Part shown: positions 1-41,492 of the stretch, in pieces
Position numbering within the stretch: position 1 is the stretch's first letter
Layout of the letters: each line of letters starts with the position of its first letter
IMG/VR virus record: IMGVR_UViG_2778261065_000024
Span: 1-49,328 of that record
Strand: one strand, 5' to 3'
From: a virus
Lineage: Duplodnaviria > Heunggongvirae > Uroviricota > Caudoviricetes
DNA: 49,328 bases
Program-made: the position numbers and the translations under genes
The notes under the pieces: model-generated
Databases searched by the model: none
What the model was told of the DNA's origin: nothing
Seen by the model: the letters and a program-made list of their open reading frames with translations, nothing else

Positions 1-1521
1 TTATTCAGGCTTTAATTTATTGATAATAGAATCTACCATTTTAATGCCTGCCTCATTGACTATGACTGAATTGACTACTCTATCAAAATAGTCTTCTATA
101 TGGTGGGAAAATAGGAAAGCAGCACTTGATGGTTTTTTGTTCTTTTCAACTGCAGATTGCAAGACTTCATGAGGCGGAATTTTAAACCTTTTGCATGATG
201 CAATGAGATATTCAAACTCTTCAAATGATAGACAAAAAATATTCTCTGTAGGGATATGATAGTTATGTTTAAACTTGTCATATATCTTATTCATCTCATC
301 TTTAGCATAAGTATTAGCTAGGATACTACCATTGCCTAAGAAAAGGTTTTTATATGTAATGCAAATGATATATGAGTTAGCCCTGAATGGAGCTATTATT
401 CGCTCATTAGAGTATATTTCTCGATTAACTTCGTGAGATTGTTCGATTGCTTTTAATACCGATTTCTTTATTTTTCCTGCAATATCCTCAGGGCGTAATG
501 TTACCATGCCTTTTTGGTGTATCTCAACGCCTTTAGCATCAATGAAAATATTTGCCTCAGTATGTGGAATGAAATAATCAACTACTTTATTATCTTTAGG
601 TAGTCGTTCTTTAAGGTATTTTTCGTTATGAAAATCAATTTCGCTTTCTTTTAGTATTAATTCCAGTGCATTTTCAAATACATTTCCAAAGCTATCCATG
701 AACTTCTCGGCATCAGTTCTTCTTAAAAGATCATATATGAACGTCTGTATGCTTGTTGAAGTCAGTTGTGTGTGTATCTGAAAATACTCTGAACCTTTTT
801 TTATTAATGGTTTTTCAAGGAAAGGTGATGATGAGTAGTATTCAAGCAAAGGTTTATCATAGGTTTTTGATTTGCAAAATGTAGATAGTTCATTGTAATT
901 TATTGATATTGCATCAAGAAATTTCTCAATGGTATTTCTAGGAATGATGTCAAATAATATAGTAAATGTATCTACATTCATTTTTCTCACGGGATGCTCT
1001 TCTGTTATGTGAGTTATTAATATGTAAGATAGCTTAAGAAAGTCTTCGATAGATACATTCGTGATAGTAAAAAAACTTGTCTTTATTTTATGGTTTTTTT
1101 CAAGTTCTGAAAATAGAAAGACTTGTCTGCTAATTGTGTTTAGAGCGTCAATTTTCTGGTAGATTCCTTGTTGGTATAGATTATTTCTAATGAAGAAATG
1201 CATGCCATTCTTCCTCTCAAGACCGATAGGAATAATGTTCAAGGTTTCATAAGTTTTTTGGAAGAGTTTTATTGCTTGATTTTTATCGAGGATTTTGAAT
1301 TTTTTATTCTTGCCAGTTACTGACGCAGACCACTTTAGACATAAATTAACAATCCAAGGCATGTGTCGTAACATGTGGATATTATCTTCAAATTTTTGTA
1401 AGTTATATTGCATACAGAATTCGATAAATAAATCAGGGGAATAACCTTGGATTTCTGAACGAATAGCATCCATTCTTAACTTTGCAACCGCATCAGATTG
1501 AATATCTAATTTTTGAATCAC
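1..1521 (-). CDS. hypothetical 506-aa protein; AT-rich cargo gene directly downstream of the prophage integrase; family not recognised
   Basis: Uninterrupted 506-codon ORF (TAA at 1-3) starting 12 bp after the int stop, same strand; visibly AT-rich relative to neighbouring phage genes; C-terminal half has VVDYF...IFIDAKG, which could be a PD-(D/E)xK-like motif (tentative). Confidence 0.7.
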   Translation of the reverse strand: MIQKLDIQSDAVAKLRMDAIRSEIQGYSPDLFIEFCMQYNLQKFEDNIHMLRHMPWIVNLCLKWSASVTGKNKKFKILDKNQAIKLFQKTYETLNIIPIGLERKNGMHFFIRNNLYQQGIYQKIDALNTISRQVFLFSELEKNHKIKTSFFTITNVSIEDFLKLSYILITHITEEHPVRKMNVDTFTILFDIIPRNTIEKFLDAISINYNELSTFCKSKTYDKPLLEYYSSSPFLEKPLIKKGSEYFQIHTQLTSTSIQTFIYDLLRRTDAEKFMDSFGNVFENALELILKESEIDFHNEKYLKERLPKDNKVVDYFIPHTEANIFIDAKGVEIHQKGMVTLRPEDIAGKIKKSVLKAIEQSHEVNREIYSNERIIAPFRANSYIICITYKNLFLGNGSILANTYAKDEMNKIYDKFKHNYHIPTENIFCLSFEEFEYLIASCKRFKIPPHEVLQSAVEKNKKPSSAAFLFSHHIEDYFDRVVNSVIVNEAGIKMVDSIINKLKPE

Positions 1522-1533
1522 AATAGGTCTCCA

Positions 1534-2547
1534 CTACAAATTATAAAGAGGATTTTTAGTCACCGCGTCTTCAAGGTGATCGGGCGAAAAGTGGGCGTAA
1601 ATCATGGTCATTTTTATATCGGCATGACCCAAAATATCACGCAGTACCAGTATGTTTCCGCCGTTCATCATAAAGTGACTGGCGAATGTATGGCGAAGCA
1701 CGTGGGTGCATTGGCCCTCCGGTAGGTCAATACCGGCCCGCTTTACTGCCCGCTCAAAGGCTTTTCTGCATGGCGTGAATAACTTTCTTCTGTTTTTGGG
1801 GAGTTCATCATACAGATCCTGAGATATCGGCACAGTACGGTTTTTCTTGCCTTTTGTTTTTGTATAAGTAATTCGGTATTTCGATATTTGATGGCCCTGC
1901 AGATTTTCGGCTTCACTCCACCGTGCGCCAGTAGCCAGGCATATTTTTGCAATCATTAGTAAGCTAGGGCTTTGAGATTCAGCACATGCCGCCAACAGGC
2001 GCTTGATTTCGTCCGTGGAAAGAAAAGCCAGCTCACCTTCGGCAATTTTGAAGGTCGGAAGTCCTGCCAGCGGGTTTGGTGCTGACCAGTGTCCTAGTTT
2101 TTTTAATGTACCGAACACAGATGATAGATTGCGCTGTTCAAGGTTTACCGTGCGGGGCTTAACGGGCGACATCAGCGTGCCATCTTCATTTCGCACTTCA
2201 CCTTTTAGCCGTGCTTCGCGGTATTTCGTAAAGTCACCGGCAGTCAGCTCTGAAGCGATGGGATCGCCCAGACCATTACAGATAATTCCAAGTTTCGCCA
2301 TGAGTCGCTTGGGGTCTGCGAGTGTTTGACCATACAGGGAATACCACAGCTCAATTAATTCTGATAGGTGTCGCCGATCTTCCTTTTCTCCCAGCCAAGG
2401 TTTCTTGTTTACCTCGTCCATGGTGAAATTCTCAAACGCAATGGCTTCGCCTTTCGTCGCAAATTGTTTGCGTACGCGTTTGCCATCTCGCCCGTTTGGG
2501 TAGCATTCACATAACCACTTTCCGTTCGGCTGTTTTCTGATGGTCAT
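1534..2547 (-). CDS. int: tyrosine integrase, P2/186 family
   Basis: 337 aa; N-terminus MTIRKQPNGKW..GKRVRKQFATKGEA and C-terminal HVLRHTFASHFMMNGGNILVLRDILGH typical of P2-family integrases; sits next to the repressor. Confidence 0.9.
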   Translation of the reverse strand: MTIRKQPNGKWLCECYPNGRDGKRVRKQFATKGEAIAFENFTMDEVNKKPWLGEKEDRRHLSELIELWYSLYGQTLADPKRLMAKLGIICNGLGDPIASELTAGDFTKYREARLKGEVRNEDGTLMSPVKPRTVNLEQRNLSSVFGTLKKLGHWSAPNPLAGLPTFKIAEGELAFLSTDEIKRLLAACAESQSPSLLMIAKICLATGARWSEAENLQGHQISKYRITYTKTKGKKNRTVPISQDLYDELPKNRRKLFTPCRKAFERAVKRAGIDLPEGQCTHVLRHTFASHFMMNGGNILVLRDILGHADIKMTMIYAHFSPDHLEDAVTKNPLYNL

Positions 2548-2548
2548 A

Positions 2549-3181
2549 TCAAAGGCTCTTAATGATTTTCAGTGCGCGGCCTATTACCTCAATGTCATCC
2601 AGTTCGCACTCAAACGATGAATCATCCTGATGCACTACTAATCTGTTTCCCGGGAGTCGTGTCAATTTTACAATGCTTTTTATCCCGTCGATGTCCACTA
2701 ACCACGTACCATTTACTGGTGGTGTTTGGTTGCGATCTATTAAATAAGAATCACCAGAAGTAGTCACCAGCAGCAGGTTGCTTGAGTCTGAGGGGAGTAT
2801 GCTGCTATCAATGATTGCTTTTCCAGCATCGATCAGCAAACCTCCGTTGAGAGTTGCCTTGTCAATTTCAGGAGATACAAGCTCCGAAAGAGGTTTAACT
2901 TTGCTAGAGTTCACGGAATTGATATTTTTTTTAGGGTCAATGTTTGAACCTGGATCGCCCTGTCCGGTAGTTAGCCACAGTAAAGAAACTCCTGTTTCCA
3001 AAGCGCACTGAATCACCCATTCTGCAGGAAAACTATCTCTTAAGTATCTGTTTGCCATAGTGCTTTTTGATGCGCCCAAGTGATCGCAAAGTTGCTGTCT
3101 GGACTTGAAATCATAGGCTGCCATTAGCCTATGGATAGCCTCTCTTCCCCCTGTATTCTCGCCAGCTTTTACTTGTATCAT
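2549..3181 (-). CDS. cI: CI-type immunity repressor (phage 186-like)
   Basis: 210-aa ORF divergent from an Apl-like gene and upstream of int; N-terminal HTH-like region; position and size fit 186 CI; no clear LexA-type cleavage motifs. Confidence 0.65.
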   Translation of the reverse strand: MIQVKAGENTGGREAIHRLMAAYDFKSRQQLCDHLGASKSTMANRYLRDSFPAEWVIQCALETGVSLLWLTTGQGDPGSNIDPKKNINSVNSSKVKPLSELVSPEIDKATLNGGLLIDAGKAIIDSSILPSDSSNLLLVTTSGDSYLIDRNQTPPVNGTWLVDIDGIKSIVKLTRLPGNRLVVHQDDSSFECELDDIEVIGRALKIIKSL

Positions 3182-3192
3182 TTTTTAATCCT

Positions 3193-3221
3193 GTTGACGT
3201 ATCAAATATTGGATCGTAGTA
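3193..3221 (+). promoter_or_regulatory. candidate sigma70 lytic promoter (pR-like): -35 TTGACG, 17-bp spacer, -10 TAGTAT
   Basis: TTGACG at 3193-3198 and TAGTAT at 3216-3221 in the cI/apl divergent intergenic region, pointing towards apl. Confidence 0.45.
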
Positions 3222-3240
3222 TCTTGGTGTATCAAATATT
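3198..3240. promoter_or_regulatory. two direct repeats GTATCAAATATTG (3198-3210, 3228-3240), candidate operator sites
   Basis: Exact 13-bp direct repeat 30 bp apart, overlapping and downstream of the putative promoter between repressor and apl. Confidence 0.4.
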
Positions 3241-3300
3241 GAATCAAATAAAACAAGATAAAACGACGTAAACCAAACCTTAATCGAGAGATACTGCACT

Positions 3301-3549
3301 ATGAGCAACGACATTTCAATTCGTGTACCAAAAGTGATGGCGACACCAGCTGAGTTCGCGGAATGGGAAGGCCGCTCTCGCGGTTCGGTATATCAAATGA
3401 TTCATAATGGTAAACTCGCTAAATTCTTGGAAAGAAAAGAAAAACCGAAAGACAGAGTATGTATACGTTACCTTGAGTACAAAAAGGAACAAGTCAGGAA
3501 AAACATGGGCCAATCCAATTTCAACTTTAATGTCATCGTTGGTGACTAA
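3301..3549 (+). CDS. Apl/Cox-like excisionase and transcriptional regulator
   Basis: 82-aa ORF, first gene of the rightward early operon, divergent from the repressor; position and size fit 186 Apl. Confidence 0.55.
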   Translation: MSNDISIRVPKVMATPAEFAEWEGRSRGSVYQMIHNGKLAKFLERKEKPKDRVCIRYLEYKKEQVRKNMGQSNFNFNVIVGD

Positions 3550-3581
3550 GTTCAATTATGAGAACTTTCTAAGGGGGCAGC

Positions 3582-4091
3582 ATGTTTGATTACAAGATTT
3601 CCAAACATCCGCATTTTGATGAAGCCTGTAGAGCTTTTGCACTACGTCACAATATGGCAAAGCTGGCAGAACGTGCAGGAATGAATGTTCAGACACTGCG
3701 AAACAAACTCAATCCAGAGCAACCGCATCAGCTCACCGCACCAGAAATCTGGTTGCTTACCGATCTGACTGAAGATTCAACGTTGGTAGACGGTTTTCTG
3801 GCACAGATTCATTGTCTGCCATGTGTTCCGATTAATGAGGTGGCAAAAGAGAAACTGCCGCATTACGTCATGAGTGCAACTGCAGAGATCGGGCGTGTTG
3901 CTGCAGGTGCGGTATCTGGCGATGTAAAAACCAGTGCAGGTCGTCGTGATGCTATCAGCAGCATTAACTCTGTAACACGACTGATGGCGCTGGCGGCTGT
4001 TTCATTGCAGGCCCGTTTACAGGCTAATCCTGCGATGGCAAGTGCAGTTGATACTGTAACTGGCCTCGGTGCGTCATTCGGTTTGCTGTGA
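3582..4091 (+). CDS. cII: CII-like lysogeny establishment regulator (186-type)
   Basis: 169 aa, the same length as 186 CII, immediately after the apl-like gene; N-terminal HTH-like region (QTLRNKLNPEQP). Confidence 0.65.
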   Translation: MFDYKISKHPHFDEACRAFALRHNMAKLAERAGMNVQTLRNKLNPEQPHQLTAPEIWLLTDLTEDSTLVDGFLAQIHCLPCVPINEVAKEKLPHYVMSATAEIGRVAAGAVSGDVKTSAGRRDAISSINSVTRLMALAAVSLQARLQANPAMASAVDTVTGLGASFGLL

Positions 4092-4299
4092 GGTGCTTAT
4101 GCTGACGAAAGAACCATCATTTGCATCGCTGCTGGTAAAACAAAGCCCGGCAATGCACTACGGTCACGGCTGGATCATGGGGGAGGATGGTAAACGCTGG
4201 CATCCGTGCCGTTCACAAGATGAATTGCTGGCAGAACTATCTACGAAAAAACGGGGGAACAAATGGCTATTGAAGGCGCTGCGGCGACTGTTCCATTAA
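4069..4299 (+). CDS. hypothetical early protein (76-aa ORF; start uncertain)
   Basis: ORF in the early operon, overlapping neighbours; no recognisable motifs. Confidence 0.35.
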   Translation: MRHSVCCEVLMLTKEPSFASLLVKQSPAMHYGHGWIMGEDGKRWHPCRSQDELLAELSTKKRGNKWLLKALRRLFH

Positions 4300-4604
4300 G
4301 CCCCGGTGAACGCCTGAATGGACTTAACCATATTGCGGAGTTAAGGGCGAAAGTATTTGGCCTGAATATTGAGTCAGAGCTTGAGCGGTTTATTAAAGAT
4401 ATGCGTGATCCACGGGATATCAATAACGAACAAAATAAACGGGCACTGGCTGCTATATTCTTTATGGCAAAAATTCCAGCTGAACGTCATAGCATCAGCA
4501 TTAATGAGCTGACCACTGACGAAAAGCGGGAGTTGATTAAAGCAATGAATCATTTTCGTGCAGTGGTGAGCTTATTTCCCAGACGGCTAACCATGCCGAA
4601 TTAA
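4263..4604 (+). CDS. hypothetical early protein (113 aa)
   Basis: ORF in the early operon between cII and A; start uncertain. Confidence 0.45.
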   Translation: MAIEGAAATVPLSPGERLNGLNHIAELRAKVFGLNIESELERFIKDMRDPRDINNEQNKRALAAIFFMAKIPAERHSISINELTTDEKRELIKAMNHFRAVVSLFPRRLTMPN

Positions 4605-4671
4605 CCAACTAATGAAATTAATGGCGTAAACCCGCCGGGTATCCCTTTATCTAAATTCAGGAGAATTGATT

Positions 4672-4905
4672 ATGCGTAATATTGAAACCCTCACGACTAA
4701 AACCGGACCGGATGATGCAGGGCTTAATATTTTACTGACAGAGGCTCGTCTGGAAGAACGCCGGGCAAGGGCTGAAGCAATGGCAGCTCGCCTTGATAGC
4801 CTGGCGTGTCATATCACATCCCGCCAGCTAAACCACGTCGAAGCAGCAGAACTACTGCGTGTAACTGCTGAAGCAATCCAGAACGAAGCGCAGGAGATCC
4901 ACTAA
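4672..4905 (+). CDS. hypothetical early protein (77 aa)
   Basis: ATG at 4672 preceded by CAGGAG 8 nt upstream; in the early operon. Confidence 0.5.
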   Translation: MRNIETLTTKTGPDDAGLNILLTEARLEERRARAEAMAARLDSLACHITSRQLNHVEAAELLRVTAEAIQNEAQEIH

Positions 4906-5132
4906 TGGCTGATGCAATGGATCTTGTACAGCAGCGCGTTGAAGAAGAACGCCAGCGCCATATCCGTGCTGCCCGTGCCAAAACGCCGGGCGTGTCCCGC
5001 GTGCTTTGCATTGAGTGTGAAGCGCCAATTCCGCCAGCACGCCGCCGCGCCATTCCAGGTGTGCAGCTTTGCATTACCTGTCAGGAAATCGCAGAACTGA
5101 AAGGCAAACATTACAACGGAGGTGCTGTATGA
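4905..5132 (+). CDS. TraR/DksA-family C4 zinc-finger protein
   Basis: 75 aa with CIECE...(17)...CITCQ, i.e. CxxC-x17-CxxC; CAGGAG RBS; stop overlaps the dam start (ATGA). Confidence 0.65.
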   Translation: MADAMDLVQQRVEEERQRHIRAARAKTPGVSRVLCIECEAPIPPARRRAIPGVQLCITCQEIAELKGKHYNGGAV

Positions 5133-5986
5133 GCACCATCCTGAAATGGGCGGGAAATAAAACCGCCATTATGTCCGAACTGAAAAAACACCTTCCTGCT
5201 GGCCCGCGACTGGTTGAACCTTTCGCGGGTTCCTGTGCTGTGATGATGGAGACGGATTACCCCAGCTATCTGGTTGCGGATATTAATCCTGATTTAATCA
5301 ACCTCTATAAAAAGGTTGCCGCTGATTGTGAATCGTTTATATCTCGCGCCAGAGTTTTATTTGAGATCGCAAACAGGGAGGTGGCTTATTACAACATAAG
5401 GCAGGAGTTTAATTACTCCACTGAAATTACTGATTTCATGAAAGCGGTATATTTCCTGTATCTCAATCGTCACGGTTACCGTGGTTTATGTCGCTATAAC
5501 AAGAGCGGGCATTTCAACATTCCCTACGGTAATTATAAAAATCCGTATTTCCCTGAAAAAGAAATTCGCGCATTTGCAGAAAAAGCCCAGCGGGCAACGT
5601 TTATCTGCGCCAGCTTTGATGAAACGCTGGCGATGTTGAAGGCGGGGGATGTGGTGTATTGCGATCCGCCGTATGACGGCACGTTTTCCGGTTATCACAC
5701 TGACGGCTTCACTGAAGATGACCAGTATCACCTGGCATCCGTTCTTGAACATCGGTCATCAGAAGGACATCCGGTCATTGTTTCTAACAGTGACACATCC
5801 CTGATCCGTTCGCTGTATCGCAATTTTACTCACCACTACATCAAGGCAAAACGCAACATCGGTGTGGCAGCTGGCGAGGGTAAATCAGCAACAGAAATCA
5901 TTGCTGTTTCCGGGCCGCGCTGCTGGGTGGGATTTGATTATTCGCGTGGCGTGGACAGTTCTGCCGTGTACGGAGTACGTGCATGA
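5129..5986 (+). CDS. dam: DNA adenine methyltransferase (Dam-like, GATC N6-adenine MTase)
   Basis: N-terminal [16 protein letters not shown] (SAM-binding motif) and catalytic DPPY (VYCDPPYDG); overlaps neighbours as in an operon. Confidence 0.85.
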
Positions 5987-8397
5987 GTCATGCCGATATG
6001 AACAACTGCTGCGGCTTTAACGAGGCTACCGCAGCATTCTCATGGAACAGCCCGAAAAAGGCCATTAACCCTTATCTGGACCCGGCGGAAGTTGCGCCGG
6101 TTTCTGCGCTTTCAAACCTGATCACTCTGTACGCTGCCGATAACGAGCAGGAACAACTGCGCCGTGAGGCACTGAGTGATCAGGTCTGGGAGCGTTATTT
6201 CTTTAATGAATCCCGTGATCCTGTCCAGCGCGAAATGGAGCAGGATAAGCTAATTAGCCGGGCAAAGCTGGCGCATGAGCAGCAGCGTTTTAATCCAGAC
6301 ATGGTCATTCTGGCGGATGTCAACGCCCAGCCTTCCCATATCAGCAAGCCGCTGATGCAACGTATTAAATACTTCAGCAACCTGGGCAGGCCAAAGGCTT
6401 ATTCCCGCTATTTGCGTGAGACGATTAAGCCATGCTTGGAACGACTGGAGCATGTACGCGACAGCCAGCTATCTGCATCTTTTCGTTTTATGGCAAGCCA
6501 TGAAGGGCTGGACGGTCTGCTGATCCTGCCTGAAATGAGTCAGGATCAGGTGAAACGCCTGTCCACCCTTGTCGCTGCGCATATGAGCATGTGTCTTGAT
6601 GCCGCTTGTGGTGATTTGTACGCCTCCGATGATGTTAAGCCGGAAGAAATCCGCAAGACATGGGAAAAGGTGGCAGCAGAAACCCTGCGACTGGATGTCA
6701 TACCGCCTGCGTTTGAGCAACTCCGCCGGAAAAGAAACCGCCGCAAACCTGTGCCCTATGAACTCATTCCGGGTTCGCTGGCGCGTATGCTGTGCGCCGA
6801 CTGGTGGTATCGGAAATTATGGAAGATGCGTTGCGAATGGCGGGAAGAGCAGTTGCGTGCTGTCTGTCTGGTCAGCAAAAAAGCATCTCCCTATGTCAGC
6901 TATGAAGCCGTGATGCATAAACGTGAGCAGCGCCGTAAGTCGCTGGAGTTTTTCCGTTCTCATGAACTGGTGAACGAAGACGGCGACACGCTGGACATGG
7001 AGGATGTGGTAAACGCCAGCAGCAGCAACCCTGCGCATCGCCGCAATGAGATGATGGCCTGTGTTAAAGGCCTGGAGCTTATCGCGGAAATACGCGGTGA
7101 CTGCGCCGTTTTCTACACCATCACCTGTCCGTCACGTTTCCATTCCACGCTAAATAACGGCAGGCCCAACCCGACCTGGACAAATGCGACGGTAAGACAA
7201 AGCAGTGATTATCTGGTTGGCATGTTTGCTGCATTTCGTAAGGCGATGCACAAAGCCGGATTGCGCTGGTATGGCGTGCGGGTGGCTGAGCCGCATCATG
7301 ACGGTACAGTTCACTGGCACCTGTTGTGTTTTATGCGCAAAAAAGATCGCCGCGCCATTACTGCTTTGTTGCGTAAGTTTGCCATTCGTGAAGACCGCGA
7401 GGAGCTGGGGAATAACACGGGACCACGCTTTAAGTCTGAGTTGATTAACCCGCGCAAAGGAACGCCGACAAGCTACATCGCGAAATATATCAGTAAGAAC
7501 ATTGACGGGCGTGGTCTGGCTGGCGAGATCAGCAAGGAAACGGGTAAATCCCTGCGTGATAACGCTGAATACGTGAATGCCTGGGCGTCTCTGCATCGTG
7601 TTCAGCAATTCCGCTTCTTTGGCATTCCGGGGCGTCAGGCTTACCGTGAACTGCGATTGCTGGCTGGTCAGGCGGCAAGGCAACAGGGTGACAAAAAAGC
7701 AGGTGCGCCGGTACTGGATAACCCGCGCCTTGATGCAATCCTGGCTGCTGCTGATGCTGGTTGTTTTGCCACCTACATCATGAAGCAGGGCGGCGTACTG
7801 GTTCCCCGTAAATATCACCTCATCAGAACCGCTTATGAAATCAACGAAGAGCCAACCGCCTATGGCGATCACGGTATTCGTATTTATGGCATCTGGTCAC
7901 CCATTGCAGAGGGCAAGATCTGCACTCATGCAGTGAAGTGGAAAATGGTTCGTAAGGCCGTTGACATTCAGGAGGCGGCAGCCGACCAGGGCGCTTGCGC
8001 CCCTTGGACTCGTGGCAATAACTGTCCCCTTGCTGAAAATTTGAACCAACAGGAGAAAGATAAATCAGCTGATGGGGGCCCCAGAACGGACTTTACCCGC
8101 ATGGATGACAAGGAGTTGCACGATTACCTGCACAGTATGAACAAAAAGGGGCGCCGGGAACTGGCTGCAAGGTTACGTCTGGTGAAACCGAAACGGCGTA
8201 GAGACTACAAACAGCGAATTACAGACCATCAACGACAGCAGCTCGTCTATGAACTGAAATCCAGAGGATTTGATGGCAGCGAGAAAGAGGTCGATTTACT
8301 CCTTCGCGGCGGCAGTATTCCGTCAGGAGCAGGCCTGCGTATCTTCTATCGGAACCAGCGTTTGCAGGAAGATGATAAGTGGCGGAACCTGTATTAA
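5983..8397 (+). CDS. A: replication initiation endonuclease gpA (rolling-circle)
   Basis: 804 aa; conserved block shared with the second copy at 41425-44247 ([36 protein letters not shown]); position after the early genes. Confidence 0.9.
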
Positions 8398-8467
8398 TTA
8401 CGCTGGTTAACAATTCGTGCTCTTAATAATACCAGGCATATCAGGCTGATAAGCGTAAAAAAAACGT

Positions 8468-8510
8468 TTTACATCAGTAAGATTATTATATACTGTAAAT
8501 ATAAACAGTG
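8468..8510 (+). promoter_or_regulatory. SOS-regulated promoter: TTTACA -35, TATACT -10, overlapping LexA box TACTGTAAATATAAACAGTG (8491-8510)
   Basis: CTGT-N8-ACAG core (CTGT 8493-8496, ACAG 8505-8508), close to the LexA consensus TACTGTATATATATACAGTA, 40 bp upstream of the 8552 ORF. Confidence 0.6.
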
Positions 8511-8551
8511 GTTATACATACAGCATTGCGTGTGGTGTCATAGGAGGAAAG

Positions 8552-8740
8552 ATGCAGGACTATTTTTTGGAGTCTTTGAAGCTCCAGCGCATTGATTTTT
8601 TTCTTAAGCTTGTAGCGGCTAGTGAGTGTAGTGATGAAGAGAAGGGGCTGGCTCTGCAGTGGGTTTCTGAATTGACTGATGAACTCATGGCAAAAATCAG
8701 AAGCCACGAATACAACCGCTCAATGGATGTCATCAGCTGA
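8552..8740 (+). CDS. small protein (62 aa), possibly a Tum-like antirepressor N-terminal module
   Basis: ATG preceded by TAGGAGGAAAG; downstream of the LexA box; followed 10 bp later by a DinI-like gene. Confidence 0.45.
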   Translation: MQDYFLESLKLQRIDFFLKLVAASECSDEEKGLALQWVSELTDELMAKIRSHEYNRSMDVIS

Positions 8741-8750
8741 GGTGACTTTT

Positions 8751-8984
8751 ATGCGCATTGAAATAATGATCGATAAAGAGCAGAAGATTAGCCAGTCTAC
8801 CCTGGACGCCCTTGAATCCGAGCTTTACCGCAATCTGCGCCCCCTGTATCCCAAAACGGTAATCCGTATCCGTAAAGGTAGCTCTAACGGTGTGGAACTG
8901 ACCGGACTGCAACTGGACGAAGAAAGAAAACAAGTGATGAAAATTATGCAGAAGGTGTGGGAAGACGACAGCTGGCTGTATTGA
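8751..8984 (+). CDS. DinI-family protein
   Basis: 77 aa MRIEIMIDK....TVIRIRKGSSNGVELTGLQLDEERKQVMKIMQKVWEDDSW, resembling the DinI family fold; GAGGTG RBS. Confidence 0.75.
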   Translation: MRIEIMIDKEQKISQSTLDALESELYRNLRPLYPKTVIRIRKGSSNGVELTGLQLDEERKQVMKIMQKVWEDDSWLY

Positions 8985-9097
8985 TTTTGTCAATAGACGC
9001 TTGTTTTTACTAATCAAAAAGGGTTACATATGAGTGAGAGGCGATGTCAATCAGATATCGCCTTGTTTTTTGTCAAGAAAAGAATAATAGGCTAAAA

Positions 9098-9775
9098 ATG
9101 AAAATTAATAATGTAGCGTTACCAATATCTCTTGCTGTAATCCTAACTGGTTGCGTGCCACATGCTTCTAACCGAAATATCACTGCTATTGAAGTGGTGA
9201 AGCCTGCTATTGGGCAAAGTGCTACCGCCTACATGGGCGATCCCATTATCACATCTGCTACTGGATTTAAAACGGACGTACTAGAACTTGGTGCGGCTAA
9301 TGGTGCATTGTCTTCTATCGCTGCTGGTACATATTGCAGTGAGGGGAATGGAATTTACCGCAATTATCATAACCCTCAAGCTGTTGCGTTAAAAAATCTC
9401 TATGGGCAAATCGGTAACTATGTTGATTATGTTAGTTACGATGCTGCAAAAAATGAGATATCACCGCCAAATGGTACTTCTTATACTGCATCAGAAATTT
9501 CTATCAAACGTGTTCCTGATGGGCTGTGTCGAGTTAGTAACTCATTGGTTAAGACTATCGAATACAATGGAAATGCAGGCGGTGTAATGAAGTTCACCTA
9601 TCGTGAATTTGCAAACGATATGGCTCGTGCAGCATTTACAACAGATTTTTCTGTAGATTCTAAGGGAAGTGACGTTATCGCTTACAAAGGTGCCAAGTTC
9701 AAAGTGAACAAGGCTGATAACTCGTCTATTTCTTATACAATTATTTCTGGCTTTGACAAGGCTGTCACGTTCTAG
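9098..9775 (+). CDS. putative lipoprotein (cargo gene; function unknown)
   Basis: N-terminus MKINNVALPISLAVILTGC with lipobox LTGC; alternative start at 9044 with GAGAGG RBS; moderately AT-rich; lies between A and the packaging genes. Confidence 0.7.
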   Translation: MKINNVALPISLAVILTGCVPHASNRNITAIEVVKPAIGQSATAYMGDPIITSATGFKTDVLELGAANGALSSIAAGTYCSEGNGIYRNYHNPQAVALKNLYGQIGNYVDYVSYDAAKNEISPPNGTSYTASEISIKRVPDGLCRVSNSLVKTIEYNGNAGGVMKFTYREFANDMARAAFTTDFSVDSKGSDVIAYKGAKFKVNKADNSSISYTIISGFDKAVTF

Positions 9776-9879
9776 GTTTCACGCTTACTGAGTATGTTAC
9801 GATTTTGCACATTCTGCATAAGCGCGCATGTCTATGCTGCATGAGATCGCATGATCGTTTGAGGATCTTTTGTGTTAAG

Positions 9880-9904
9880 GCCCGCCAGTTCTGGCGGGCT
9901 TTTG
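9880..9904 (+). terminator. rho-independent terminator candidate downstream of the lipoprotein gene
   Basis: GCCCGCCAG-tt-CTGGCGGGC hairpin followed by TTTTG. Confidence 0.5.
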
Positions 9905-9948
9905 CGTAGATCATGCAGGTGCATGAAAACCACTACATAAAGCGGGCA

Positions 9949-9967
9949 GGCGTGGCGGGGATACGAG
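9949..9967 (+). other. candidate cos (cohesive end) site of the 186-like prophage
   Basis: GGCGTGGCGGGGATACGAG resembles the P2 cos cohesive end GGCGAGGCGGGGAAAGCAC as I recall it; correct strand relative to Q; the recalled sequence is not verified. Confidence 0.3.
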
Positions 9968-10077
9968 CGCGCGCTCATGGTTGAATTAATGAAATTATGG
10001 TGTTAAATAGGCTAGCTTTTTAAGTCGTGAATATTCAATTTTTCAACTCATTTTTTTCATAGGGAGGAGTAATTGAC

Positions 10078-10776
10078 ATGGTTATGTTAGTGGATGACTG
10101 TCCACGATGTGGATCACAAAAAATAGCGTTTGATGTTAATGGGCTGAATTGCACTAGGGTTTACAATGCATTGGGCGGGGGTAAAACATACGAGTACGAG
10201 GTCTATTGTGTTTGCCGAGAGTGTCATAAAACGACAATGTTTCTTTGCAGACCTTTAACGAAAAATAAAACTTTAGATGGCTATAATTGGGAAAGTGGAA
10301 TATTCGGCTTAAAGGAAGTTGCAGAGGTTGTTAGGCCTATATCACCGGCAGACTTAGCAGTAGAGGAGCCACCAGAGTTCTTACCTGAGCATATCAATAG
10401 TGCATATGAGGAAGGGGCGAAATGTTTGGCTATAGGTTGTTATAATGCAGCAGCAACCATGTTTAGGCTTTGCCTTGATTATGCCACAAAAGGACTTCTT
10501 CCTGATGGGGAGCAAGGGCCTGCGCAAAAAATAAGGAGAAGCCTAGGGTTAAGAATGGAGTGGTTATTTGATAATCATCTACTGCCTGAAGCTTTAAGGG
10601 AACTAGCTGAATGCGTTAAAGATGACGGAAATGATGGAGCGCATGAAGGTATTTTGGATAAAGCTGCTGCTGAGGATCTTGAAGATTTTACCTATCTTTT
10701 TTTAGAACGGCTTTACACTGAACCTCAACGCCTTATCGAAGCCAAGACAAGGCGTGAACAAAGAAGAAACAAATAA
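10078..10776 (+). CDS. zinc-ribbon protein with DUF4145-like C-terminal domain (cargo gene, candidate defence)
   Basis: 232 aa; strong RBS AGGGAGGAG; N-terminal CPRCG...CVCRECH (C4 zinc ribbon); C-terminal VKDDGNDGAHEG resembles the GN..AH signature I associate with DUF4145; sits between candidate cos and the Q stop. Confidence 0.75.
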   Translation: MVMLVDDCPRCGSQKIAFDVNGLNCTRVYNALGGGKTYEYEVYCVCRECHKTTMFLCRPLTKNKTLDGYNWESGIFGLKEVAEVVRPISPADLAVEEPPEFLPEHINSAYEEGAKCLAIGCYNAAATMFRLCLDYATKGLLPDGEQGPAQKIRRSLGLRMEWLFDNHLLPEALRELAECVKDDGNDGAHEGILDKAAAEDLEDFTYLFLERLYTEPQRLIEAKTRREQRRNK

Positions 10777-10784
10777 GTTCGGAA

Positions 10785-11822
10785 TTATTCTTCTGAAAGA
10801 ATATAGGGCGTAAATTTAATCACTTCTTCGCCCAGCCAGTCGTTCAGCTCTTGTAGCCTTTTTTGCAAGGGAGTTAATTCATTACGTACAAATACGCGAC
10901 TGGCCTTCTCCACATCCCCAAACCCTCCAACATTATTAGGCATAATCCCCATCATTTGCGGCGGCACGCGGTGCGCAGCCATCATGTCGTCGCGGCTGAC
11001 ATTTTTGATATTCAAAAACTCATCCTTCGCCGCGACTTCTGACAATGGGATGATCTGAAGCCCGTCTTTTTTGCCGTTAGGCGAGTACATAAACAGGTTG
11101 CGGAAGTTGCCTGGACCTTTGGCGCTTTTCATCGCATTGCGGAGGTTGTTCACATCCTCCTGGTTTTGCGCGGCATCGGTCATGTACATGATAAAGCCCG
11201 CATGACTGCCGTTAATGTAATACTTGCGACGGAACAGCGTGGCGGACTCGTTGAGCAGGGCTGACGGAATGGCAGAAAGATAACCGGGCAGGCCGTAGAT
11301 CTCCTGATTAATATCCGGTTCCATCAGATGAAAAATGCTGCCTTTCGTGAACTGATACGGCTGGGTTGTCATACCGTATTGCACAAACCAGTAGGTATCC
11401 AGGTCTAACCCGCGTCGGGTGTATTTTGCCAGTGCAGGCTCAAGGGCGATAACTTCACCGAAGCGGTTCGTGCGTTTCTCCAGGTAGGCGTTACCAAAAA
11501 CCAGATAGTCCTGCACAAAACGCGAAAAAGCCTGCTGGCTGAGCAGCGGGTGAGGGATGTAGGTGCTGGTCAGAATGTTGCACTTTACTGCAATCGGGGA
11601 ACTATGATGCACGGCAGCGCGGAAGGTGCGCGCCAGTCCGTCAAAGCTGACGGGCGGCTCATACCAGCGGTCCATCTGTACGCATTCCACATAATCCAGC
11701 AGTTCTCGGCGGTCCAGAACAGGAACGGGATCGCCGAAGCTGAATGCTTCGGCTGTAGTTTGACTTTTAAGCTGGATCTGTTTCGTCGCCGCAGCGCGGT
11801 TCTTCTTACTCTTTCCCATCAA
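10785..11822 (-). CDS. Q: portal protein gpQ
   Basis: 345 aa; P2 Q-like length and position; paralogous to the 36740-37786 copy (HRVPPQMMG, GDVEKA). Confidence 0.9.
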   Translation of the reverse strand: MMGKSKKNRAAATKQIQLKSQTTAEAFSFGDPVPVLDRRELLDYVECVQMDRWYEPPVSFDGLARTFRAAVHHSSPIAVKCNILTSTYIPHPLLSQQAFSRFVQDYLVFGNAYLEKRTNRFGEVIALEPALAKYTRRGLDLDTYWFVQYGMTTQPYQFTKGSIFHLMEPDINQEIYGLPGYLSAIPSALLNESATLFRRKYYINGSHAGFIMYMTDAAQNQEDVNNLRNAMKSAKGPGNFRNLFMYSPNGKKDGLQIIPLSEVAAKDEFLNIKNVSRDDMMAAHRVPPQMMGIMPNNVGGFGDVEKASRVFVRNELTPLQKRLQELNDWLGEEVIKFTPYILSEE

Positions 11823-19170: not shown

Positions 19171-19701
19171 TTACGCTCTTAATAAACTTAAATAACTTTT
19201 TATGCTTTGGCAAAAAGGGAAAAGGTCTATTTTAATTTTCCAGTTTTTTTTGTTTTGAACCCCAGAAGCAATAATAGAACCGTCCCAATATTTTATTCCA
19301 TTTTTGCCGGTCTTTTTTGTTAACTCAAAACTTAATGCGTGAATAATTTTATTGCAGCATTCGCGTATAGAATCTTTAACATGACCATCTATAACAAAAA
19401 GTATATTTTCATGTTCTTCAAATGCTTCTTTCTCAGGTGAGTAATCTGGGTTCCACTCATGTTCACTAGTGTCTTGGAGAATTCGTAGTTTTGTACAAAG
19501 GCTAATAAGATTGTTGCTAATGGTATATTCCAACCATCCGTTGTACGATAACTCCTCCATTTCAAATTCAGTTACTATAGAACCATCATATACTTTCTGT
19601 GTGGAATATATACGCTGTAAATAAAATTCAGATGAACAGCATAATTGCTCAATTATTCTTGCGTGTTCTTCTATAGCGTAATAATCAATTGGATGGCTCA
19701 T
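19171..19701 (-). CDS. hypothetical protein (AT-rich moron between S and V, antisense to the late operon)
   Basis: 176 aa from ATG 19701 (ORF extends to 19740); markedly AT-rich; opposite strand to the flanking tail genes; no recognisable family. Confidence 0.7.
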   Translation of the reverse strand: MSHPIDYYAIEEHARIIEQLCCSSEFYLQRIYSTQKVYDGSIVTEFEMEELSYNGWLEYTISNNLISLCTKLRILQDTSEHEWNPDYSPEKEAFEEHENILFVIDGHVKDSIRECCNKIIHALSFELTKKTGKNGIKYWDGSIIASGVQNKKNWKIKIDLFPFCQSIKSYLSLLRA

Positions 19702-19732
19702 TCTTTTACCTTTCTTTGATTGGAATTGTATT

Positions 19733-19750
19733 TGTGTCATTTACCACACA
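19733..19750. promoter_or_regulatory. TGT-N12-ACA dyad upstream of gene V (late promoter activator site candidate)
   Basis: TGTgtcatttaccacACA about 50 bp upstream of the V start. Confidence 0.35.
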
Positions 19751-21626: not shown

Positions 21627-22224
21627 TCTGCTGCCACCGGGTTCAACTTCACTGGAGCGCCGACTGGCGCAAACCTGTAGCGGGATTTCTGATCTGCAGG
21701 TGCCGCTGCGTGACTTGTGGAATCCGGCTACCTGTCCGGTCAGCTTCCTGCCTTATCTCGCCTGGGCGTTCTCTGTGGATCGCTGGGACGAGGGCTGGAC
21801 AGAAAGCGTCAAACGCCAGGTAGTGAAGGATGCTTTTTATATTCATCAGCATAAAGGAACTACCAGTGCCGTGCGGCGGGTGGTGGAACCGTTCGGATTC
21901 CTGATCCGCATTATTGAGTGGTGGCAGACCGGAGAAACACCGGGCACGTTTCGCCTGGATATCGGCGTGCAGGACCAGGGCATCACTGAAGATACCTATC
22001 TGGAACTTGAGCGGCTGATAAGCGATGCCAAACCATGTAGCCGTCACATGATCGGCATGTCCATCAATCTGCAGACCAGCGGTCCGCATTGGGTGGGGGC
22101 CGCCAGCTATCTTGGCGAAGAAATCACGATCTATCCGTATATCAACGAAACAATTATTTCCGGCGGCACCGCGCATGAAGGCGGGGCGGTCCATGTTATT
22201 GACACAATGAGAGTGAATCCATGA
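21619..22224 (+). CDS. I: baseplate/tail protein gpI
   Basis: 201 aa; paralogous to 26290-26931 (LPYLAWAFSVDRWD). Confidence 0.85.
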   Translation: MNSLLPPGSTSLERRLAQTCSGISDLQVPLRDLWNPATCPVSFLPYLAWAFSVDRWDEGWTESVKRQVVKDAFYIHQHKGTTSAVRRVVEPFGFLIRIIEWWQTGETPGTFRLDIGVQDQGITEDTYLELERLISDAKPCSRHMIGMSINLQTSGPHWVGAASYLGEEITIYPYINETIISGGTAHEGGAVHVIDTMRVNP

Positions 22225-23642
22225 GCACAAAATTTTATACCCTGCTGACGGATATTGGCGCGGCGAAACTTGCCAGCGCCGCCGCGCTCGGTGTGCCGCT
22301 AAAAATTACCCATATGGCGGTGGGCGATGGCGGCGGAACATTGCCAACGCCGGACGCCAAGCAGACAGCATTGGTAAATGAGAAACGCCGGGCTGCGCTG
22401 AATATGCTCTATATCGACCCGCAGAACAGCAGCCAGATTATTGCTGAACAGGTGATCCCTGAAAACGAGGGCGGTTGGTGGATACGTGAAGTGGGCCTGT
22501 TTGATGAGTCCGGGGCATTGATTGCCGTGGGCAACTGCCCGGAAAGCTATAAGCCGCAACTGGCTGAAGGCAGCGGGCGTACCCAGACCGTGCGCATGGT
22601 GCTGATTACCAGCAGCACGGACAATATCACCCTGAAAATCGACCCTGCCGTAGTGCTGGCAACCCGCAAGTATGTGGATGACAAGGTACTGGAGCTGAAG
22701 GTGTACGTGGATGATCAGATGGCAAAACATCTTGCCGCACCGGACCCGCATTCACAGTATGCACCCAAAGAAAGTCCGACGTTTACCGGGACACCAAAAG
22801 CGCCAACTCCAGCGGCAGGGAATAACACCACGCAGGTTGCGACCACCGCGTTTGTTCAGGCGGCACTGACGGCTCTTATTAATGGTGCGCCAGCCACGCT
22901 GGACACGCTGAAAGAAATAGCCGCAGCCATTAACAATGATCCGAATTTCAGTACCACCATTAACAATGCGCTGGCACTGAAAGCGCCGTTGTCGAGTCCG
23001 GCACTCACCGGAACGCCAACAGCCCCCACTGCTGCACAGTCGGTCAACAATACACAGATTGCCACCACGGCTTTTGTGAAATCGGCGATTGCAGCAATGG
23101 TAGGTTCTGCACCTGCGGCACTGGATACACTGAACGAACTGGCGTCGGCGTTGGGGAATGATCCGAACTTTGCCACGACAATGCTTAATGCGCTGGCAGG
23201 TAAACAACCGCTGGACAATACGCTGACTAATTTGAGTGGAAAGGATGTCGCTGGTCTTCTCGCATACCTTGGTTTGGGAGAAGCGGCAAAACGGGAGGTG
23301 GGGACAGGGGAAAATCAGATACCGGACATGGCTTCTTTTGCCAGTGGTGATGGATGGATGAAATTACCCAACGGGAAAATCCTGCAATATGGTCGAGGTG
23401 CGGTTACGCCAACATTATCGACGCAAACAATGAGAATTACATTCAGCATCCCTTTTCCTAAAAAAGTGGACTGCGCCATGCTTACCCATTCTGGTGATGG
23501 TGGTGCGCCTTTAGGCGCTGGACGGGGATTCGTGATGACTGCAGAAGGTCCAACACTAACCGGTTTTAATTCCGCTTACAGAACTGCATCAACCAGCTCC
23601 ACAGTATCGATGAATTACAGTTGGTGGGCTGTTGGTGAGTAA
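22221..23642 (+). CDS. H: tail fibre protein gpH
   Basis: 473 aa; conserved N-terminal about 150 aa shared with 24680-26293; repeated NDPNF / ATTAFV motifs. Confidence 0.85.
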   Translation: MSTKFYTLLTDIGAAKLASAAALGVPLKITHMAVGDGGGTLPTPDAKQTALVNEKRRAALNMLYIDPQNSSQIIAEQVIPENEGGWWIREVGLFDESGALIAVGNCPESYKPQLAEGSGRTQTVRMVLITSSTDNITLKIDPAVVLATRKYVDDKVLELKVYVDDQMAKHLAAPDPHSQYAPKESPTFTGTPKAPTPAAGNNTTQVATTAFVQAALTALINGAPATLDTLKEIAAAINNDPNFSTTINNALALKAPLSSPALTGTPTAPTAAQSVNNTQIATTAFVKSAIAAMVGSAPAALDTLNELASALGNDPNFATTMLNALAGKQPLDNTLTNLSGKDVAGLLAYLGLGEAAKREVGTGENQIPDMASFASGDGWMKLPNGKILQYGRGAVTPTLSTQTMRITFSIPFPKKVDCAMLTHSGDGGAPLGAGRGFVMTAEGPTLTGFNSAYRTASTSSTVSMNYSWWAVGE

Positions 23643-23662
23643 TTTTATTCAGGGTGATTTAT

Positions 23663-24106
23663 ATGAACGAATATGTTTATAGCGCAAGGCATAATGCTTT
23701 TTTCCCTGTGGATATGATTGATAAATATAAATCAGAGGGATGGGATTTATCAGATGCAAAGGAGGTGAATCAAAATATTATCAGTGAGTTTATGGCTGAA
23801 CCGCCACAAGGAAAAATCCGTATTGCCGGAGATGATGGGCTGCCTGCGTGGGCAGATATTCCTCTACCCACGCATGAAGAGCTTATTGAAATTACTGAAT
23901 CAGAAAGACAGCTACTAATTAACCAGGCCAACGAATACATGAACAGTAAGCAATGGCCCGGTAAAGCCGCTATTGGTCGTCTGAAAGGTGAGGAACTGGC
24001 GCAATATAATTTGTGGCTGGATTATCTGGATGCACTGGAGCTGGTTGATACCTCCAGTGCACCAGATATTGAATGGCCTACGCCTCCAGCAGTACAGGCC
24101 AGATGA
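23663..24106 (+). CDS. G: tail fibre assembly protein gpG
   Basis: Follows H; C-terminal ...SAPDIEWPTPP resembles the C-terminus of the convergent paralogue; ORF opens with GTG at 23654. Confidence 0.75.
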   Translation: MNEYVYSARHNAFFPVDMIDKYKSEGWDLSDAKEVNQNIISEFMAEPPQGKIRIAGDDGLPAWADIPLPTHEELIEITESERQLLINQANEYMNSKQWPGKAAIGRLKGEELAQYNLWLDYLDALELVDTSSAPDIEWPTPPAVQAR

Positions 24107-24680
24107 CCTCCGGCGCGGTGCTGGTATCTGTTGCCGTCACCGCGTCAATGTAATCCAGCACGGCGTTAAGTCGGGTTGTTTCTGCCTGCGTCAACTTCCG
24201 TCCGGCCTGCAATTTCAGTTGAATCAGACTGATGGAGGCCATCGCAGCATCAATCAGTGACTGGCGCTGTGCTTCTGCTGCTTCTACTGCGGCGTTATGC
24301 TGTGCCTCAGTATCTGTCACCCATTTCTCACCATCCCATTTATCGTATAGCGTTAACGGGGCGATAGTGGTTGTATTTTCAGGGTAATTACCCGGCACCG
24401 TGATTTCTTTTGCTTCTCCTGTTTCGGTGCTATAGATAATTTCACCGCGATGGTCTGGCATATATTCCCATGAGTTTAAATCTACTGAACGGCAGATTGC
24501 ATAACCAGCCTTATATGTGCCAGGAGCATCTAAACAGGAATATGCCGGGATACCGACACCAACAGCAAGATATTCATTTGAAGTGGAAATATATTCCCGT
24601 GTTTCACCATCATAGTTATAGACGGTAATATTCCCCGCCTTCGTGGCAATAAGTTCGCTATTTAATACGGCTTTATCCAT
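24078..24680 (-). CDS. G: tail fibre assembly protein gpG (second prophage segment)
   Basis: 200 aa, downstream of the second H gene; C-terminal ...STAPEVIWPVLLEA; 3' end overlaps the other G ORF by 29 bp. Confidence 0.8.
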   Translation of the reverse strand: MDKAVLNSELIATKAGNITVYNYDGETREYISTSNEYLAVGVGIPAYSCLDAPGTYKAGYAICRSVDLNSWEYMPDHRGEIIYSTETGEAKEITVPGNYPENTTTIAPLTLYDKWDGEKWVTDTEAQHNAAVEAAEAQRQSLIDAAMASISLIQLKLQAGRKLTQAETTRLNAVLDYIDAVTATDTSTAPEVIWPVLLEA

Positions 24681-26293
24681 TATGCAGCTCTCACGATATA
24701 GTTAAATGCAATATTTCGTGGACGGGTTTCGCTCCCACCTGTGTTACCAATACTCCCTCGTGTATGTAGCGTTGGTGATGGAATCAGAGTTCCTCCGACA
24801 TCGGCAGCATCAAGCCCCCGGCCTTGCGTATATGCTCTTCTGAAGATTGTCGCCAGTTCCCATTCCTCTTTTGAATCATACCCATCGTTGGCAACAACAA
24901 TATGGCGGTGCTTCTCCAGCATCCCAGTCTGAATGCTCAATAAAGCACGTCCAGCATCAACGCCTCGTCCGTCATCCCAGCCACGAATAAACTCACCACG
25001 GAGATCAGGTAGTTTCCCTGATGGATATGCTGTAGCAAGATGGGGATATTTAACCTTATCAAAGGCGGCGCCATTGCATTTCAACCAGCCTGTCGGCAAA
25101 GTGGCTGAAGGCCATGGAACAGGCACACCAACGGGTAATGCAGAGCCTTCTCCCAAACCAAGGTAATCAAGAACCCCCTGCGTGCTGGGCTTACTAAGAA
25201 TGGCACGTCCAACACTTGTCAGTGCGGTTAACGCGGCGCGATCTGCACCTGTAAAATAAGGGAGTTTATCTGCTGCTGTAGCAAGTCCTGCCAGCGCCGT
25301 CAGGGTAGCATCCTTCGGTTGCTTACCCGCAAGCGCGTTAGTCATGGTTGTCGCAAAATTCGGGTCGTTACCCAGCGCCGCCGCCAGCTCGTTCAGCGTG
25401 TTCAGTGCGTCAGGTGACGAGTCTACAAGCGCGGCAATCGCGGCCATAACATAAGCCGTGCTTGCGATCTGAGTATTATTAGTCCCCTGTGGCGCTGTTG
25501 GCGTTGTTGGCGTTCCGGTCAGTGCCGGGCTGTTTAATGGGGCTTTCTTGTTTGTTTCATCCATTACCACCTTAACGGCTTTTGGTGTCGCTGCCAGTGT
25601 TTCAGACGTGCTGTTCGTGGCGCTACTGAGCTGAACAATCCCTTTTTGTGTTGTGGTGGCATTCTGGGCGGTATATTTCCCGCTAGCCAGGTCATATGCA
25701 GCCTTAACCGCTTTCGGTGTTGCGGCCAGTGTTTCTGATTCACTGTTAATTGCACTGCTTAACTGAGTGAAACCTTTTGCGGTCAGCGAGGCGTCCGGGT
25801 GGCGTCGTGACTGTTCGTGCTCTGAGATTTTGTCATCCACATATTTGCGGGTTGCCAGAACCACAGACGGGTCGATTTTCAGCGTGATAGCTTCGGTATT
25901 CGTGACAACCAGAATCATGCGGATAGTCTGGGTACGACCACTGCCTTCCTGCAACTGCGGTTTGTACGTTTCCGGGCAGTTCGCCACCGCAATGAGTACG
26001 CCTTCATCATCATAAAGCCCAATCTCACGTATCCAGAATCCGCCCTCGTTCTCAGGGATGATTTGCTCCGCAATAATCTGGTTCTGGTTGTTCGGGTCAA
26101 CACTCAGAAGATTCAGCGGTGCAATGCGTTTCTGGTTAATCAGTTTTGTTTGTGCAGGGTCTGGTGTTGGTAACACACCATTTGCATCACCAACGGCCAT
26201 TTGCGTCAGATTCAGCTTACTGCCGAGCATCGTCGCGTTAGCCAGTCGTGCCGCGCCCTGATTAGTCAGAATGGCGTAGTATTTCACTGTCAT
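24680..26293 (-). CDS. H: tail fibre protein gpH (second segment)
   Basis: 537 aa; conserved N-terminus (AVGD..LPTPD, IPENEGG.WIRE) shared with 22221-23642. Confidence 0.85.
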   Translation of the reverse strand: MTVKYYAILTNQGAARLANATMLGSKLNLTQMAVGDANGVLPTPDPAQTKLINQKRIAPLNLLSVDPNNQNQIIAEQIIPENEGGFWIREIGLYDDEGVLIAVANCPETYKPQLQEGSGRTQTIRMILVVTNTEAITLKIDPSVVLATRKYVDDKISEHEQSRRHPDASLTAKGFTQLSSAINSESETLAATPKAVKAAYDLASGKYTAQNATTTQKGIVQLSSATNSTSETLAATPKAVKVVMDETNKKAPLNSPALTGTPTTPTAPQGTNNTQIASTAYVMAAIAALVDSSPDALNTLNELAAALGNDPNFATTMTNALAGKQPKDATLTALAGLATAADKLPYFTGADRAALTALTSVGRAILSKPSTQGVLDYLGLGEGSALPVGVPVPWPSATLPTGWLKCNGAAFDKVKYPHLATAYPSGKLPDLRGEFIRGWDDGRGVDAGRALLSIQTGMLEKHRHIVVANDGYDSKEEWELATIFRRAYTQGRGLDAADVGGTLIPSPTLHTRGSIGNTGGSETRPRNIAFNYIVRAA

Positions 26294-41379: not shown

Positions 41380-41492
41380 TTTACGGGATTCTGAAATCCC
41401 GTTTTTGCCTGTTTTGTGCGCGCTTCATATATCGCTGCGCGTTTTTTGGTCATTTACGGGATTCGTGAGTCCCGTTTCTGTCTGTTTTTTGT
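41380..41492. repeat. two about 40-bp direct repeats, each with a palindromic core (ACGGGATTC..AATCCCGT), upstream of parM; candidate parC-like site
   Basis: tttacgggattctgaaatcccgtttttgcctgttttgtg (41380-41418) and tttacgggattcgtgagtcccgtttctgtctgttttttgt (41453-41492); the second lies within the 3' end of the A ORF. Confidence 0.5.

Follow-up and report, generated by a model that had tools for sequence, protein, structure and literature searches.

We analysed a 49,328-nt stretch of viral DNA (IMG/VR record IMGVR_UViG_2778261065_000024, Caudoviricetes; hereafter the window) and in particular the open reading frame (ORF) of 506 codons that occupies its first 1521 nt. This ORF is very probably gapS1, a single-protein antiphage gene carried as cargo by a 186-like prophage (P2 family, Peduoviridae) at ssrA, whose product would respond to a capsid-type trigger by driving the cell into dormancy. 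The gene is already known, being named, of an experimentally characterised kind and annotated in RefSeq; it should be labelled as gapS1, a known defence gene, rather than as hypothetical. The coding sequence and its ribosome-binding site are:

1–1521, minus strand: gapS1 coding sequence, 506 aa, GTG start at 1521–1519 and TAA stop at 3–1 (ORF list and NF047931 match).
1529–1532, minus strand: GGAG ribosome-binding site, 7 nt 5′ of the GTG and inside the 12-nt spacer between int and gapS1 (read from the sequence).

An earlier note made from the sequence alone (the original prediction) had described a 506-residue ORF starting 12 bp after the stop of the integrase gene (int) on the same strand. 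We found the ORF to be intact and the spacer between the int stop (TAG at 1536–1534) and the GTG to be exactly 12 nt (1522–1533). At the base composition of gapS1, 506 stop-free codons would be expected by chance with a probability of approximately 1e-18. The GC content is 0.516 over the rest of the prophage (window 1522–23283) and 0.478 in int but only 0.314 in the ORF, in agreement with the proposal that the gene is AT-rich (~31% GC compared with ~52% for the backbone) and was horizontally acquired.

The original prediction had recognised no family, a statement overturned by a full-length and above-threshold match to the NCBIfam model NF047931 (antiphage_GapS1) together with the RefSeq name of the gene. 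The protein matched this model with an E-value of 3e-128 and 428.5 bits, covering profile positions 1–455 of 455 with residues 20–474; the curated cut-off is 320 bits, and the validated homologue P0063 scored 401.9 bits. In complete Escherichia coli genomes the same gene is mostly named 'gapS1: GapS1 family protein' (WP_000615103.1), and PHROG 14259 (function unknown) also matched with an E-value of 5e-165. A search of 1.84 billion representatives with the family profile returned 630 clusters at E≤1e-30. The best 150 of the profile matches were mostly 490–530 aa long with near-full coverage of the profile, the shorter ones appearing truncated. The 90% cluster of the window protein holds 285 member sequences, one of which occurs on at least 1000 contigs. 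The described family consists of stand-alone proteins of ~500 aa; the window protein (506 aa) agrees with it in size, in its PD-(D/E)xK domain at the C-terminal end and in having no partner gene. By these comparisons it is clearly a full-length member of the already described GapS1 (GAPS1) family, and we regard this membership as established.

GAPS1 was named from a GMT island of Vibrio parahaemolyticus and consists of one protein whose C-terminal domain is of the PD-(D/E)xK type (Mahata et al., bioRxiv 10.1101/2023.03.28.534373). According to the same paper, the D313A and K328A substitutions each abolish defence against T7, T7 escapers carry substitutions in the capsid protein Gp10, and Gp10 together with GAPS1 leads to a growth arrest that the authors call dormancy. 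Besides the Vibrio prototype, activity was shown there for four homologues from E. coli; cloning of three E. coli homologues conferred protection against coliphages, and in E. coli ZH142-A the native homologue was required for protection against BASEL21. The prototype (VPaI-6, WP_005477165.1) and the window protein are both single proteins of ~500 aa that match the same NCBIfam model over their full length. For the alignment of their active sites, this part of the prototype was rebuilt from the sequences of the mutagenesis primers given in the supplement of bioRxiv 10.1101/2023.03.28.534373. The stretch ...GKVVD313FLHQRNGTSIFID326AK328GVEPNQK of the prototype corresponds to ...NKVVD315YFIPHTEANIFID328AK330GVEIHQK of the window protein with identical spacing, D313, D326 and K328 falling on D315, D328 and K330. 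The motif on which a PD-(D/E)xK-like C-terminal half had been proposed (VVDYF...IFIDAKG) is present as VVD315YFIPHTEANIFID328AK330G, and its residues align with D313 and K328, both essential in the prototype, in support of that proposal.

We also examined the conservation of these residues. E283, E300, D315, D328 and K330 were invariant in 26 homologues that are 28–78% identical to the window protein. In 61 family representatives (21–45% identical), D315 and K330 were again invariant and E283 and E300 were conserved in at least 90%; the loss of catalytic residues that would have spoken against a nuclease was not observed, and the catalytic residues of the window gene are thereby established. 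In the N-terminal region Q118 was invariant, and P55, W56, K63, W64, Q117, Q122, R132, F137 and F150 were conserved in at least 90% of the sequences. The earlier suggestion of a novel defence or nuclease effector stands for the defence nuclease, by family, and falls for the novelty, as GAPS1 was characterised in 2023–24, E. coli homologues included.

An AlphaFold2 model of the window protein, computed from the 26-sequence alignment, had a mean pLDDT of 88 and a pTM of 0.88. The parts of the protein are encoded as follows:

1006–1521, minus strand: N-terminal all-helical region, residues 1–172 (AlphaFold2 helices 10–172, pLDDT mostly above 90).
772–975, minus strand: winged-helix-like segment, residues ~183–250, a helix-helix-strand-helix unit followed by a β hairpin (AlphaFold2 model).
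226–711, minus strand: PD-(D/E)xK nuclease/phosphodiesterase domain, residues ~271–432.
675–673, 624–622, 579–577, 540–538 and 534–532, minus strand: the catalytic-type residues E283, E300, D315, D328 and K330 respectively.

In the α/β core of the model, D315 stands just before a strand (316–319), D328-A-K330 closes the next strand (324–330) and the C-terminal helices come after. The protein thus shows the restriction-endonuclease core of the PD-(D/E)xK superfamily, with an Asp at a strand start and the (D/E)xK on the next strand. Structure prediction, one of the checks proposed at the outset, pointed the same way: the structural neighbours of the model were restriction-endonuclease-like, the nearest solved ones being N.BspD6I, R.BspD6I, HindIII, Bse634I, FokI and Cfr10I, and we take the fold as established. 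A search of the viral fold database BFVD with the model gave no match below E=0.037. On the model, the N-terminal helical region is presumed to be the sensor or regulatory part.

Restriction enzymes and nickases as the nearest solved folds, a winged-helix-like DNA-binding element ahead of the nuclease domain and a DNA adenine methylase encoded by the prophage would all suit a conventional restriction endonuclease (Type II, IIS or IV-like) that cuts incoming DNA without any phage-protein trigger while Dam guards self DNA. We consider this highly unlikely. A Type II system would be expected to have an adjacent, co-varying methyltransferase, and gapS1 has no adjacent partner gene; the sole methylase is the backbone Dam, encoded 3.5 kb off (5069–5986), which is also present in relatives without gapS1 in the corresponding position. 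Moreover, the published results favour a phage-protein trigger. Upx (PDB 9wuf; PMC13099982) is likewise a single-protein antiphage nuclease of the PD-(D/E)xK type and recognises a phage protein; it differs from the window GapS1 in having 1212 aa and two nuclease domains, is 10–11% identical to it and belongs to another family; the reported Upx trigger is the terminase/gp16 rather than the capsid (PMC13601566).

The two genes upstream of gapS1 in the same leftward string (cI-int-gapS1) are:

1534–2547, minus strand: tyrosine integrase, ssrA-specific, 337 aa, directly upstream of gapS1.
2549–3181, minus strand: 186-type CI repressor, 210 aa (Phage_CI_repr and Phage_CI_C), the first gene of the string.

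The window starts at the gapS1 stop codon, and the attachment site was therefore located outside it, in an identical locus (L003, NZ_CP169309). There the prophage adjoins ssrA; attL, a perfect 46-bp direct repeat of the 3′ end of ssrA, lies 132 nt past the gapS1 stop, and its attR partner is the genuine ssrA 3′ end just beyond ogr. With attL 132 nt beyond its stop, gapS1 lies inside the element and, in the excised phage, beside attP. The Klebsiella prophage records with gapS1 begin exactly 132 nt before the stop-codon end of the gene. The original prediction had placed the gene between int and the expected attachment site, either as prophage cargo or as the edge of an adjacent island; the placement was correct, and of the two options the first, prophage cargo, holds, the position of gapS1 inside the prophage being established by attL.

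AT-rich cargo at a prophage end that encodes a predicted nuclease, in a family whose phenotype is growth arrest, might also be an addiction or stabilisation toxin (toxin–antitoxin-like) or a lysogenic-conversion gene unrelated to defence. Neither the 12-nt upstream spacer nor the 132-nt downstream arm contains an ORF, and no adjacent small antitoxin gene or RNA was found at gapS1: int lies 12 nt upstream, and downstream there is just the 132-nt att arm, which is conserved in relatives with an empty slot. Furthermore, the homologues are non-toxic when expressed alone and reduce plating 100- to 10,000-fold (bioRxiv 10.1101/2023.03.28.534373), and the ZH142-A homologue is needed natively against BASEL21. 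A toxin of this kind is thus even less probable than a restriction enzyme.

The distribution of the gene bears on whether it is functional at present. Copies 99.8–100% identical to gapS1 were found in 15 of 5426 complete E. coli genomes, and 12 Klebsiella prophage records (Kp4845-2 and others) carry it at 99.9% identity. Window positions 1–8982, which span gapS1, int, cI, an apl-like gene, cII, fil, dam and A, are 99% identical to positions 133–9113 of Klebsiella phage Kp4845-2 (L004). This identity of the left arm in an E. coli-type window and in Klebsiella pneumoniae prophages indicates recent movement of the phage lineage between genera. GAPS1 on Klebsiella prophages has already been noted in two other papers, and INPHARED reports GAPS1 together with Lamassu in 12 phages. 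The carrier prophage looks rearranged in the window, its right half being replaced by a second prophage, as might be expected if gapS1 were an inactive remnant without current function. Against this, the ORF is intact, it has kept all conserved catalytic residues, near-identical copies persist in the E. coli and Klebsiella elements just described and its cluster is widespread; of the alternatives considered, a remnant seems to us the least credible.

The antiphage activity, the capsid trigger and the dormancy response of the window GapS1 would follow by analogy from the literature on its homologues. In the lysogen, gapS1, which sits in the space from the int stop to the arm of attL that binds Int, would most likely be transcribed with cI and int. 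If the window protein behaves like the characterised members of its family, its N-terminal helical and winged-helix part may hold the C-terminal PD-(D/E)xK phosphodiesterase inactive until GapS1 is switched on by a structural protein from a superinfecting phage, as the major capsid protein does for the Vibrio GAPS1 against T7. The active nuclease would then arrest the infected cell, so that phage multiplication is blocked and the lysogen population and its resident prophage are protected. The P2-type capsid of the carrier phage itself would presumably be tolerated. The trigger and substrate of the window allele, its sensing domain and its co-transcription with int are inferred.

Several points weigh against this interpretation. 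The family assignment depends on one curated hidden Markov model and on homology. A search of the protein against PADLOC-DB 2.0.0 (2023) gave no match and one against Pfam nothing significant (best, TPD with E=0.029 and 14.6 bits compared with a threshold of 27, taken as chance); these empty results are consistent with libraries that lack a GAPS1 model and are not evidence against defence. The division of GapS1 into sensor and effector is a model: a search of the PDB with the family profile gave chance matches only (E≥0.095) and thus no solved GAPS1 structure. The nuclease target is stated to be unknown by the authors of the GAPS1 paper (bioRxiv 10.1101/2023.03.28.534373). Identity with the Vibrio prototype is ~24–29% (the paper's range for E. 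coli homologues), so that trigger and phage range, which are known for the prototype only (the trigger being T7 Gp10), may differ. Finally, a promoter and terminator scan around int-gapS1-attL found sites no commoner than in shuffled sequence, a result that neither backs nor contradicts co-transcription of gapS1 with int and leaves it at the level of inference.

The tested E. coli homologues are closer relatives. Those of the GAPS1 paper (WP_152927281.1, EJP5250929.1 and WP_194242909.1, the last being native in ZH142-A) belong to the same enterobacterial clade as the window protein but are alleles other than the window allele, and WP_000615103 is absent from the supplements of that paper (bioRxiv 10.1101/2023.03.28.534373). 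For the cloned WP_152927281.1 and EJP5250929.1 the comparison with the window protein was made over the first 126 residues and through cluster membership. Over these 126 residues WP_152927281.1 shows 100% identity with P0004 and 85.6% with the window protein; the full-length identity between P0004 and the window protein is 78%. EJP5250929.1 falls in the P0017 cluster, whose identity with the window protein is 58%. On the contigs of the P0004 and P0017 representatives, gapS1 likewise occupies this slot, immediately behind the int gene of a 186-like prophage. That the window allele and the clusters of two tested E. coli alleles share one P2/186-like slot at ssrA is of modest added value; the Vibrio prototype, by contrast, is carried by a GMT island.

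To define this slot we surveyed 80 loci encoding related integrases. In ssrA-targeting loci without cargo (L007, L009, L011–L014, L018 and L077) the att core lies 122–158 nt after the int stop, compared with 1149–1679 nt in those with cargo (L005, L006 and L008). When the arms were aligned, homology in all of them started at a pair of TGGCGGC repeats ~110 nt from the core, and thus the cargo enters after the int stop and ahead of the att arm. In L003 the direct repeat pair (TGGCGGC-N5-6-TGGCGGC) is at ~730–760, outside the window and 24–50 nt past the gapS1 stop; in the empty slot of L007 only 4 nt separate the int stop from the repeats. Judging from their sequence and position, the repeats are probably arm-type Int-binding sites that form the distal boundary of the slot.

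The slot is a cargo hotspot in that gapS1 is flanked by int and the att core within the element, and related phages hold other cargo there. Among the closest relatives that target ssrA, L005 carries a GapS1 49% identical to the window protein. L002 (NZ_CP172871, 4729–5985, minus strand, WP_416042178.1) and L006 (Citrobacter pasteurii, 1–1276 nt past the int stop) carry proteins of 418 and 424 aa that are 58% mutually identical, and L008 carries a 318-aa protein 59–1016 nt past the int stop. None of the last three matched Pfam, PADLOC or NCBIfam, and they are better candidates for undescribed defence genes than gapS1. After remoter int homologues (~53–55% identical; att sites not located), the same position holds PRTase_III-A, an Old-like ATPase-TOPRIM, a pAgo-associated (Aga) nuclease, PDC-S49 and HEPN-like genes. 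The int-att slot as a variable cargo site has already been reported: the published P2 position is the same as here, with cargo between int and att mobilised with the phage, and ~3% of P2 defence systems sit there according to the P2 hotspot paper. The main text of that paper mentions neither GAPS1 nor ssrA, and the exact boundaries of the slot (int stop to TGGCGGC arm repeats) come from the present analysis.

In GapS1 clades at 78%, 58% and 49% identity with the window protein, the gene always lies directly after int on the same CI/CII/Fil/Dam backbone, with int-gapS1 spacings of +12, +8 and −4 nt (a 4-nt overlap) across the clades. We considered a read-through fusion across the in-frame TAG between int and gapS1 and rejected it, because spacing and frame differ in the other clades (+8 and −4). 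The shared position in such divergent clades argues for long residence in the slot and suggests operon coupling of gapS1 with int. Extending this, the GapS1 lineage of enterobacteria, to which the alleles tested in E. coli belong, may have resided for long in one precisely bounded slot (int stop to attP TGGCGGC repeats) in ssrA-targeting 186-like phages, where coupling to int would provide defence from the lysogenic cI-int transcript; divergence to 49% on a conserved backbone could reflect a sensor that evolves to follow changing capsids but spares the P2-type capsid of the phage itself. We offer this reading tentatively, as one that may prove wrong somewhat more readily than right. If it is true, the prophage carrier and the regulation of GapS1 would be a modest addition to knowledge, since prophages go unmentioned in the GAPS1 paper (bioRxiv 10.1101/2023.03.28.534373).

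In other genomes, a second integrase with additional defence-like cargo lies directly beyond the gapS1-side att site at ssrA (L085, 5885–9530; L088, 5868–9527; L089, 7123–9551). The cargo comprises an nSTAND/Mrr_cat protein, a large serine recombinase with ParB, and a reverse transcriptase with an SMC-like ATPase, and the arrangements look like tandem arrays of defence-carrying elements at ssrA.

The window also includes the classical P2 hotspot between the replication gene A and the portal gene Q (8400–10785). It holds a 243-aa ORF without a family match (9044–9775) and a DUF4145 protein of 232 aa that matches PD-T7-4 weakly (10078–10776); in NZ_CP169309 an IS21 element is inserted there, and the Klebsiella relative has a different sequence at this place. 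A 189-aa ORF on the opposite strand (19171–19740, minus strand), located between the genes for virion morphogenesis and baseplate V, is hypothetical in RefSeq, matched neither Pfam nor PADLOC, and is possibly a moron in a tail-gene hotspot.

An inverted-repeat search detected cix/gix-like crossover sites in inverted orientation at 23257–23283 and 25147–25173 (TTCTCGCATACCTTGGTTTGGGAGAAG and CTTCTCCCAAACCAAGGTAATCAAGAA), flanking a 1863-bp invertible tail-fibre segment (context 22221–26293); exact and fuzzy searches for canonical gix/hix sequences found none. Unusually, the segment is followed on each side by an entire tail-fibre constant region and a full P2-like structural module. These belong on one side to the gapS1 prophage (1–23283) and on the other to a second P2-like prophage, which is divergent and inverted (~24.7–47 kb). 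The window lacks the invertase, sheath, tube, tape-measure, D and ogr genes of the first prophage, which suggests either an inversion between two prophages (invertase-mediated or homologous) or a mis-join in the assembly. No complete E. coli genome reproduced the junction. This junction and the unannotated slot proteins of the close relatives are the points outside gapS1 that may merit more work. The second prophage encodes a ParM-like actin-type segregation protein (40389–41348, minus strand) beside an unusually long replication gene A protein of 940 aa (41425–44247, minus strand).
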